A stretch of DNA of 64,000 nt from NCBI RefSeq assembly GCF_913778085.1, contig NZ_CAJYXJ010000008.1. The stretch is one strand, 5' to 3'. The stretch comes from an uncultured Chryseobacterium sp. Lineage in GTDB: Bacteria > Bacteroidota > Bacteroidia > Flavobacteriales > Weeksellaceae. Under the pieces are notes generated by a model. It was not told where the DNA came from, did not search any database, and worked only from the letters and a program-made list of their open reading frames with translations. This document shows positions 20,947 through 21,298 of this stretch, piece by piece; the first letter of the stretch is position 1; each line of letters begins with the position of its first letter. Both the position numbers and the translations under genes were made by a program.

Positions 20947-20975
20947 AAAAAGGCAGTTCAAGGTAGAACTGCCTT
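20947..20975. terminator. Hairpin terminator with the stronger U-tract on the minus strand
   Basis: aaggcagttc-aaggta-gaactgcctt; A5 on the left, only cttcttt on the right. Confidence 0.8.
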
Positions 20976-21298
20976 CTTCTTTGTGAAAATTTGAGCCTGT
21001 AATGGTTATTAGTTTTAGAAAACTTTAATGCTTAAATTTTCCTTTTGTTCTAATGCTGACGTAAAGGTGAGAATTAATCTGCAGAAATACATCCGTACAA
21101 ATACTGAAAATAGATTTACGTATTTCTACGGAGTACCCCATTTAGATAAAATTTTTAGTTTAAATCTTTTATTCAATGGATGAGGATAAATAATTGGAAC
21201 AACGAATATCATTTATAAATACGAAGTAAATACATCGGGTAAAAAACAAAAAATCCGAAGAATAGATCCCCGGATTTTTCGTGTATAAGTAAATTTTC

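Follow-up and report, generated by a model that had tools for sequence, protein, structure and literature searches.

The stretch of Chryseobacterium DNA analysed here is 64,000 nucleotides (nt) long and is called the window in the following; all coordinates refer to its full length. Between rpe (20275-20925, plus strand; Pfam Ribul_P_3_epim) and ndk (21299-21715, minus strand; Pfam NDK) it contains a short element that shares sequence blocks with a family of small RNAs (sRNAs) and might encode an antagonist of this family. The closest relative of the Rpe protein is that of C. hagamense (97% identity). Two sRNA copies, A and B, carry the family core AATTTGAG-ttttc-ATGGTTATTAGTTTT at 21866-21893 and 60480-60507, and a split match to this core is located at 20988-21016 on the plus strand, consisting of AATTTGAG (20988-20995), cctgta (20996-21001) and ATGGTTATTAGTTTT (21002-21016). 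This match of 8 + 15 nt had been pointed out in an earlier note on this DNA, with the coordinates and letters found here. The 15-mer ATGGTTATTAGTTTT has exactly three matches in the window, each of them exact and on the plus strand; with up to two mismatches allowed, shuffled sequences contain 0.38 matches on average, and 1 of 100 shuffles gets to three. Conservation at the orthologous site throughout the genus puts the split match far beyond chance. On the rpe side the element borders on a hairpin (20947-20978), which is terminator-like on both strands and is followed by an uninterrupted T run only on the minus strand, and terminator scoring located a separate terminator of ndk at 21246-21282 (minus strand); both the better U-tract on the minus strand and the independent ndk terminator had been described in the earlier note.

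To describe the element across the genus, 80 rpe loci were fetched, and the sequence downstream of rpe was read and aligned. Nearly all of these loci contain one homologous unit of about 190 nt, which extends from the hairpin through an inverted repeat; with an nhmmer profile it was found at 78 of the 80 Chryseobacterium rpe loci, and the same profile gave a single match in the window (21074-20941, E = 1e-23). In plus-strand order the unit starts with the hairpin AAAAGGCAGC...GCTGCCTTTCTTCTT, followed by GAAAAT(C/T)TGAGC and a spacer of 5-7 nt; its middle part comprises (A/G/T)TGGTTATTAGTTTT, a variable stretch, AATGCTTAAAT and (C/T)AAAGAT(G/C), and it ends with about 20 variable nt, CATCCGTA and the inverted repeat. 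A complete scan over 185,579 genomes with the strict pattern AACTAATAACCA-N5-8-CTCA-N12-30-AAGGCAG detected 36 genomes with one site each, all of them Chryseobacterium or a closely related metagenome-assembled genome. Cultured strains with the unit include C. hagamense NBRC 105253 and C. daeguense DSM 19388. The sRNA-matching blocks are the best conserved segments of the body of the unit, with a mean majority fraction of 0.91 for block 1 (the 15-nt block) and 0.84 for block 2 (the 8-nt block and its surroundings) versus 0.56-0.63 in the body flanks. The complementarity to the sRNA that had first drawn attention to this site is thus conserved across the genus, and no other part of the body is under stronger constraint. 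The element is linked to rpe rather than to ndk, because ndk is found within 2.5 kb of it in only about half of the species; the idea of an sRNA-sponge pair flanking ndk, put forward earlier, has to be abandoned accordingly. Rfam 15 gave no match at gathering score in the 64-kb window, and with permissive thresholds only chance-level matches were obtained for 20900-22000 (at most 25 bits versus cut-offs of 50-109); covariance models of families including 6S-Flavo, Flavo-1, FopS and SRP found no match at or near the gathering score, and an exact-sequence literature search for the element gave no match.

The sRNA family itself is widespread. Scanning one genome per species for AATTTGAG-N4-7-ATGGTTATTAGTTTT revealed the core pattern in more than 117 stretches, often several per genome, with Chryseobacterium, Epilithonimonas, Kaistella, Riemerella, Cloacibacterium and Bergeyella as hosts among the matches listed; among these, the spacer is TTTTC in 119 of 123 cases and a GC-rich terminator follows in all. 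The 5' part of the family has the form UCUCAUGUUUAAUUUGAG-UUUUC-AUGGUUAUUAGUUUUUA with a CUCA/UGAG hairpin. A sigma-54-type promoter in the strict form TGGCAY-N5-TTGY is present at 97 of 166 core matches and in a looser form at 31 of 166, and its distance to AATTTGAG is fixed, the motif being located 25 nt upstream in 95 cases. Since most copies have this type of promoter, the family looks RpoN-dependent. Copy A, predicted to extend from 21852 to 21918 on the plus strand, belongs here (TGGCAC at 21826-21831, TTGT at 21837-21840, terminator at 21895-21912). At about 19 loci (L042, L051, L057 and L058 among them) a sigma-A-type TAnnTTTG box replaces the sigma-54 motif, as it does at copy B, which would span 60465-60537 (plus strand) with its box TATATTTG at 60453-60460, 5' of the core, and a terminator after the core. 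These two promoter classes therefore point to differently regulated paralogues with one common seed.

Measured against this family, the element is not one of its paralogues, as judged from its sequence features. It does not contain CUCAUGUUU, its spacer of 5-7 nt is variable, and the CUCA/UGAG 5' hairpin is missing. The family has a terminator 2-3 nt after AGUUUUUA; no plus-strand terminator is found between 20975 and 21895, and it is absent in every orthologue. About 15-25 nt upstream of the element core there is neither a sigma-54-like nor a TAnnTTTG promoter on the plus strand, only the hairpin. A decayed third copy of the sRNA, which the earlier note had offered as an alternative, or a functionless split match that arose by chance would account for the partial same-strand identity to the family. 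However, the unit occupies a syntenic site in 78 of 80 loci, its blocks are more conserved than their flanks, and no species shows the family promoter, 5' hairpin or terminator at the element; moreover, a pseudogene is not expected to persist throughout a genus in which other intergenic DNA is unalignable. The conservation data exclude a decayed paralogue, and we consider the probability of this explanation as a whole to be negligible.

Read from the minus strand, the unit resembles a complete small gene. A -33-like motif, TACGGAT(T)G, is located at 21090-21097 with its 3' ATG or TTG at the expected -33 position, and a -7-like box, CACCTTTA, follows at 21062-21069; in the genus this box has the form nAnnTTT[G/A] (e.g. 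GATCTTTG or CATCTTTA). The distance between the two motifs is 20-21 nt in 56 and 19-21 nt in 59 of the 61 scored species, and the sequence separating them is variable and T-rich. The A at position 2 and the TTT of the box are present in every scored species, the T at position 1 is essentially absent, and the G at position 8 occurs in about 40-50% of them. The flavobacterial sigma-A box TAnnTTTG spans -12 to -5 (PMC9723704), and for this reason the putative start was placed at A21057. Since the box is off consensus at positions 1 and 8, the promoter, if real, should be weak or activator-dependent. The earlier note had called the promoter candidate CACCTTTA degenerate; it does deviate from the consensus, yet it is a genus-wide box that keeps its distance of 19-21 nt in nearly all species. 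Similar boxes are found at other promoters of these genomes, namely AATCTTTG before a gene of the same region (gene X, see below) and TAnnTTTG before the sRNA copies of the second promoter class.

On its upstream side the -33-like motif abuts an inverted repeat, CCGTACAAATAC-N15-GTATTTCTACGG (21093-21131, minus strand), which accompanies the element in nearly every species and whose arms change in a compensatory manner (GTAGAAATAC/GTATTTCTAC versus GTATAAATAC/GTATTTATAC). A pattern search in 230 loci found the repeat once per locus and only adjoining the element. It folds better on the minus strand in 44 species and on the plus strand in 25; possible functions are those of an operator, an activator site or a hairpin in the RNA. 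An open reading frame (ORF) of 51 amino acids (aa) on the plus strand (21028-21183), which overlaps the inverted repeat and the promoter region of the element, is not conserved, being shortened to 6-22 aa elsewhere (L128, L137), and is probably not a gene.

The transcript predicted from these signals would comprise about 111 nt, from A21057 to about 20947 after the U-tract, on the minus strand. It is A-rich and contains no AUG, and its body is apparently unstructured, because fold z-scores are about -0.35 on either strand. The note's A-rich minus-strand RNA of about 110 nt fits the conserved promoter-like boxes and the terminator that accompany the element. In this RNA, block 1, AAAACUAAUAACCAU (21002-21016), is complementary to AUGGUUAUUAGUUUU of the sRNA, and block 2, with the core CUCAAAUU (20986-20998, core 20988-20995), to AAUUUGAG(UUU).

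The hairpin at the end of the predicted transcript, GGCAGUUC...GAACUGCC followed by UUUUUGU on the minus strand, is shared back-to-back with rpe in the window. At L138, L147, L151, L156 and L188, however, rpe has a hairpin of its own and the element has a second one, and where rpe has such a separate hairpin, the copy at the element keeps its A-tract, i.e. the U-tract on the minus strand. At L165 a minus-strand gene encoding 209 aa lies between rpe and the element, and the element hairpin is retained with its A-tract; on the plus strand upstream of this hairpin there is neither a gene nor a TTTG box. Judged from the downstream sequence, L164, L186 and L194 seem to be arranged in the same way, and here, too, the element keeps a hairpin of its own besides that of rpe. 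As the hairpin is kept when separated from rpe, even by a gene on the opposite strand, it would represent a terminator that belongs to the element.

The intervening gene, here referred to as gene X, encodes a lipoprotein-like product of 209-219 aa without a Pfam match. Several species have it in minus-strand orientation between rpe and the element (L165, 3224-3853; L086, 806-1465; also L160, L164 and L194), with a GGCAGC hairpin on either side. The sequence around its stop codon, CAGGTAGACTAATAACC, repeats part of block 1, and the 3' end of gene X might therefore pair with the sRNA seed as well. A second nhmmer match in L086 consists of the gene X 3' end and the rpe hairpin and was dismissed as a second element.

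If the minus strand is transcribed, its RNA would be able to form an extended duplex with the sRNA. We calculated duplexes between the 40-nt sRNA core and the minus-strand body with RNAduplex for 71 distinct orthologues, with 200 shuffles each. For the window the duplex energy is -28.8 kcal/mol compared to -13.7 +/- 2.8 for shuffled bodies, and the mean of the 71 orthologues is -29.3 kcal/mol (-21.7 to -34.1) compared to -13.6 for shuffles and -11.0 for a plus-strand control; the real duplex beats all 200 shuffles in 69 of the 71 species. The pairing predicted for the window consists of 15 bp and about 11 bp (G-U pairs included) plus short extensions, about 26 bp in total, and the pairing potential is therefore larger than the 15 + 8 bp proposed before. 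Positions 11-21 and 25-38 of the sRNA are paired in nearly all species, block 1 pairs in 62-71 of the 71 species, and G-U pairs account for 207 of 2230 pairs.

The segment between the two paired parts is instructive with regard to a second claim of the earlier note, a decoy start site with AUU in place of AUG. The sRNA part that would meet a start codon, UUUUCAUG, faces the variable 5-7 nt spacer, and the position of the supposed mimic reads CCAUU, CCACA, CCAAG, CCAUA or CCAUC in different species. With such variation in the spacer and in the base that follows CCA, a decoy start codon is not supported. The UUUUC(A) of the sRNA, which faces the inter-block spacer, is the part complementary to start contexts such as AACCAUGAAAA that are found at ORF starts of the window.

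The substitutions within the blocks argue for the same strand as the boxes. Compared to the sRNA, the blocks contain 86 changes of the type G>A or T>C and 6 of the type A>G, corresponding to rates of 0.071 and 0.017 per site. For T>C alone the rate is 0.069 versus 0.017 for A>G, although equality would be expected under strand-symmetric mutation. Changes from G to A or from T to C are compatible with G-U pairing only if it is the minus strand that meets the sRNA as RNA. The promoter-like boxes, the hairpin owned by the element, the missing family features and this substitution bias together favour the minus strand as the one that is functional. A long-range helix, GGAAAAUUUAAGC/GCUCAAAUUUUC, was considered as a structure or as a plus-strand terminator and rejected, as it contains many non-pairs across species and the fold z-scores are near zero. 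The shared blocks could also be a site at the DNA level, bound by a protein at the sRNA genes as well as at the element. They do have the same orientation at all three sites of the window, and nothing points more directly to such a site, which would be located within transcribed regions; in addition, the block spacing is 5 nt in the sRNA genes versus 5-7 nt in the element, and a substitution bias of the wobble type would be meaningless for protein-bound DNA. We regard this explanation as very improbable.

Taken together, we consider it moderately probable that the element encodes an anti-sRNA, conserved throughout the genus and transcribed independently, which serves as a sponge by pairing with the multi-copy sRNA family; minus-strand transcription, the start site, the direction of regulation and the role of the inverted repeat are the parts of this proposal that we infer. 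The element would be a single-copy, Chryseobacterium-wide non-coding gene read from the minus strand, with a weak sigma-A-type promoter (21090-21097 and 21062-21069) and a dedicated inverted repeat upstream of it. This promoter would drive an unstructured, A-rich RNA of about 111 nt that ends at the hairpin shared with rpe, and the two blocks of this RNA, with a free loop of 5-7 nt between them, would be complementary to nearly all of the conserved single-stranded portion of the sRNA. By duplex formation over about 26 bp the RNA would sequester, and perhaps destabilise, the sRNAs of the family, i.e. copies A and B and their relatives throughout the Weeksellaceae. By this sequestration the RNA would act as a dedicated anti-sRNA or sponge and set a threshold for the action of the sRNAs on their mRNAs. 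The wider notion of an antagonistic circuit made of RNA only, in which a mostly sigma-54-driven, start-codon-directed sRNA family is held in check by one anti-sRNA with a private operator, is more tentative, and we would put it at somewhat below even chances.

Several points weigh against the sponge proposal. The -7-like box is without the consensus T1 and often without G8, and the -33 motif has ATG instead of TTG in 54 of 61 species (TTG being found in the other 7). Similarity to the sRNA on the plus strand and complementarity on the minus strand are two views of a single fact, and conservation by itself does not tell the strands apart. The substitution counts are not phylogenetically independent and the blocks also hold 71 transversions, while counts of G-U versus A-C in the terminator and the inverted repeat are balanced or differ only weakly between the strands. 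Furthermore, one copy of the element against several sRNA copies would poorly suit titration if the sRNAs are abundant.

The RNA-derived contigs likewise do not correspond to the predicted transcript in a simple manner. The source genome was traced in plant-metagenome or host DNA runs, with only traces in RNA runs, and run searches found no RNA sequencing data for the source organism or a close cultured relative, including Chryseobacterium sp. Leaf405 (L130). Among Logan contigs, which are unstranded, the element region is present in RNA-derived assemblies of 9 runs, 4 of them true metatranscriptomes. In run X1 nearly all words matching a 1.8-kb stretch fall in the element region, and the contig covers 20950-21188. 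Three contigs from phyllosphere metatranscriptomes reach from the interior of rpe past the hairpin and all stop at 21042-21046; the predicted start is another 11-15 nt away, and a plus-strand 3' untranslated region (UTR) of rpe would fit this end equally well. In another three runs, including one phyllosphere metatranscriptome, contigs begin at 20995-21004 and run rightwards across the putative promoter and the inverted repeat to 21145-21176, in one case to about 21245. The contig ends thus fit neither a clean RNA of 111 nt nor any one alternative, and either strand is possible. The contigs joining rpe and the element could be a plus-strand 3' UTR, minus-strand read-through, or a merge of convergent RNAs that overlap in the hairpin, and the recurrent ends at 21042-21046 and 20995-21004 (three runs each) could be real RNA ends, either a start, a stop or a site of processing at the block 1 edge. 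A plus-strand promoter AAAATTTG (20986-20993), considered for the contigs that start near 21000, was rejected as a general feature because its TTTG is not conserved (TCTG, TCAG or TTAA in other clades). The X1 contig ends 5 nt downstream of TTCGTTGT (21200-21193, minus strand), which resembles the flavobacterial TAnnTTGY promoter variant. A second start may thus exist upstream of the first, and its RNA, about 240 nt long, would contain the inverted repeat; this is a single observation in a region that is not conserved.

These contigs bear most directly on the possibility that the plus strand is functional, either as 3' UTR of rpe or as an sRNA derived from this 3' UTR, which would use the family seed and share the mRNA targets of the family, working alongside it. 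The three metatranscriptome contigs that link the end of the rpe coding region to the element are independent of each other, and their common end is located right after a possible 12-bp stem on the plus strand (GAAAAUUUGAGC/GCUUAAAUUUUC followed by CUUUU). Raw fold energies of the body, too, are lower on the plus strand in 61 of 71 species. This energy advantage is compositional, however, because the z-scores of the two strands are -0.35 and -0.36, and the stem with its U-tract is not kept outside the clade of the window. Where rpe terminates separately, the element is still intact and has its own hairpin, and at L165, where a minus-strand gene intervenes, no plus-strand promoter is visible. 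In addition, the UUUUC that is invariant in the family is replaced by the variable spacer in the element, and the transitions observed are of the kind that would break seed pairing of a plus-strand RNA to its targets. We therefore think it rather unlikely that the plus strand is the functional one.

Even with the minus strand as the RNA, its role could differ from that of a sponge: it might act in trans as a regulator with the seed AAAACUAAUAACCA, or be itself a target regulated by the sRNA. Architecture and pairing would be the same as for a sponge, and sequence does not distinguish between sponge, target and co-regulator, which also counts against our preferred explanation. The motif exists in mRNAs as well, since the 3' end of gene X and the 5' UTR of an RDD-family gene each contain an incomplete block 1. 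Nevertheless, the minus-strand RNA has no ORF, and in most species there is no downstream gene that it could regulate; we thus judge such a different role to be unlikely, and continue with the anti-sRNA as the preferred explanation.

Several further observations concern the partner sRNAs. The sequence AAAACTAATAACCA is found 2-3 nt before the ATG of the RDD-family membrane protein gene (Pfam PF06271) at L097 (3338-3357), L011 (about 90-110) and L108 (about 375-395), each not more than 8 kb from an sRNA copy, and this gene is a candidate mRNA target of the sRNA. In the window, the ORF starts at 36010 (UUUUAACCAUGAAAAAC) and 13811 (UUAACCAUGAAAAAC), both on the minus strand, are complementary to UUUUCAUGGUU(A) of the sRNA; duplex energies at these starts are -17.9 and -15.4 kcal/mol compared to a mean of -10.1 for 215 start regions, and both ORFs are candidate targets as well. 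Five sRNA copies among L001-L117 begin right after the 3' end of a tRNA (GGTTCGAATCC...CTCATGTTT), which suggests co-transcription with the tRNA and release by tRNA processing. RNA-guided transcription by dCas12f-sigmaE, described in a study that mentions Chryseobacterium (PMC13472631), was considered as a role of the sRNA; this idea was dropped because an invariant 5' part and a terminator at the 3' end distinguish the sRNA from a guide RNA.

The proposed mechanism is of a known kind, that of an anti-sRNA or sponge, while the RNA family, the phylum and the partner appear to be undescribed in this context. In a limited literature search, no sRNA sponge described for Bacteroidota was found. The element, if the proposal is true, would to our knowledge be the first sponge RNA of this phylum and a rare case of a stand-alone chromosomal anti-sRNA conserved throughout a genus. 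As far as we know, post-transcriptional control is poorly understood in Bacteroidota, which have neither Hfq nor ProQ, do not rely on Shine-Dalgarno-based initiation and have few sRNAs with a known mechanism. The locus offers a testable sRNA/anti-sRNA pair, with a multi-copy partner outside Rfam that is apparently controlled by sigma-54 and a single-copy anti-sRNA with its own regulatory site. If the proposal holds, RNA sponging operates in Bacteroidota, and deletion of one gene would switch on a redundant sRNA family, which is otherwise hard to achieve with many paralogues.

Within the phylum, the closest parallel to the partner family is provided by FopS and GibS of Bacteroides thetaiotaomicron, multicopy sRNAs in which a single-stranded conserved 5' part is followed by a terminator, the same design as found here; the antagonist of FopS is the protein RbpB, and no RNA antagonist is described in that study (PMC11697453). 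In contrast to FopS and GibS, to which it has no sequence or Rfam relationship, the partner family belongs to Weeksellaceae and not Bacteroidaceae, and most of its copies have a sigma-54-like promoter.

Among decoys embedded in mRNAs, the intercistronic region of chbBC titrates the sRNA ChiX. Like this decoy, the element would titrate an sRNA by imitating its target site; unlike it, the element is located outside mRNAs in most species, and the start-codon part of a target is not imitated, that position being variable.

Sponges of sRNAs known from other bacteria include AgvB and AsxR of enterohaemorrhagic Escherichia coli (EHEC) prophages, SroC acting on GcvB, 3'ETS-leuZ acting on RyhB and RybB, and RosA of Bacillus acting on RoxS and FsrA. 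In contrast to these, the element stems from Bacteroidota, is known from sequence alone and has a multi-copy family as its partner, and its predicted pairing is bipartite, with 15 + about 11 bp covering nearly all of the conserved part of the sRNA. Like them, it would be a small RNA without coding function, with its conserved part complementary over an extended stretch to the seed of one sRNA or sRNA family, and it would form a separate gene that has both a promoter and a terminator, as do AgvB and RosA.
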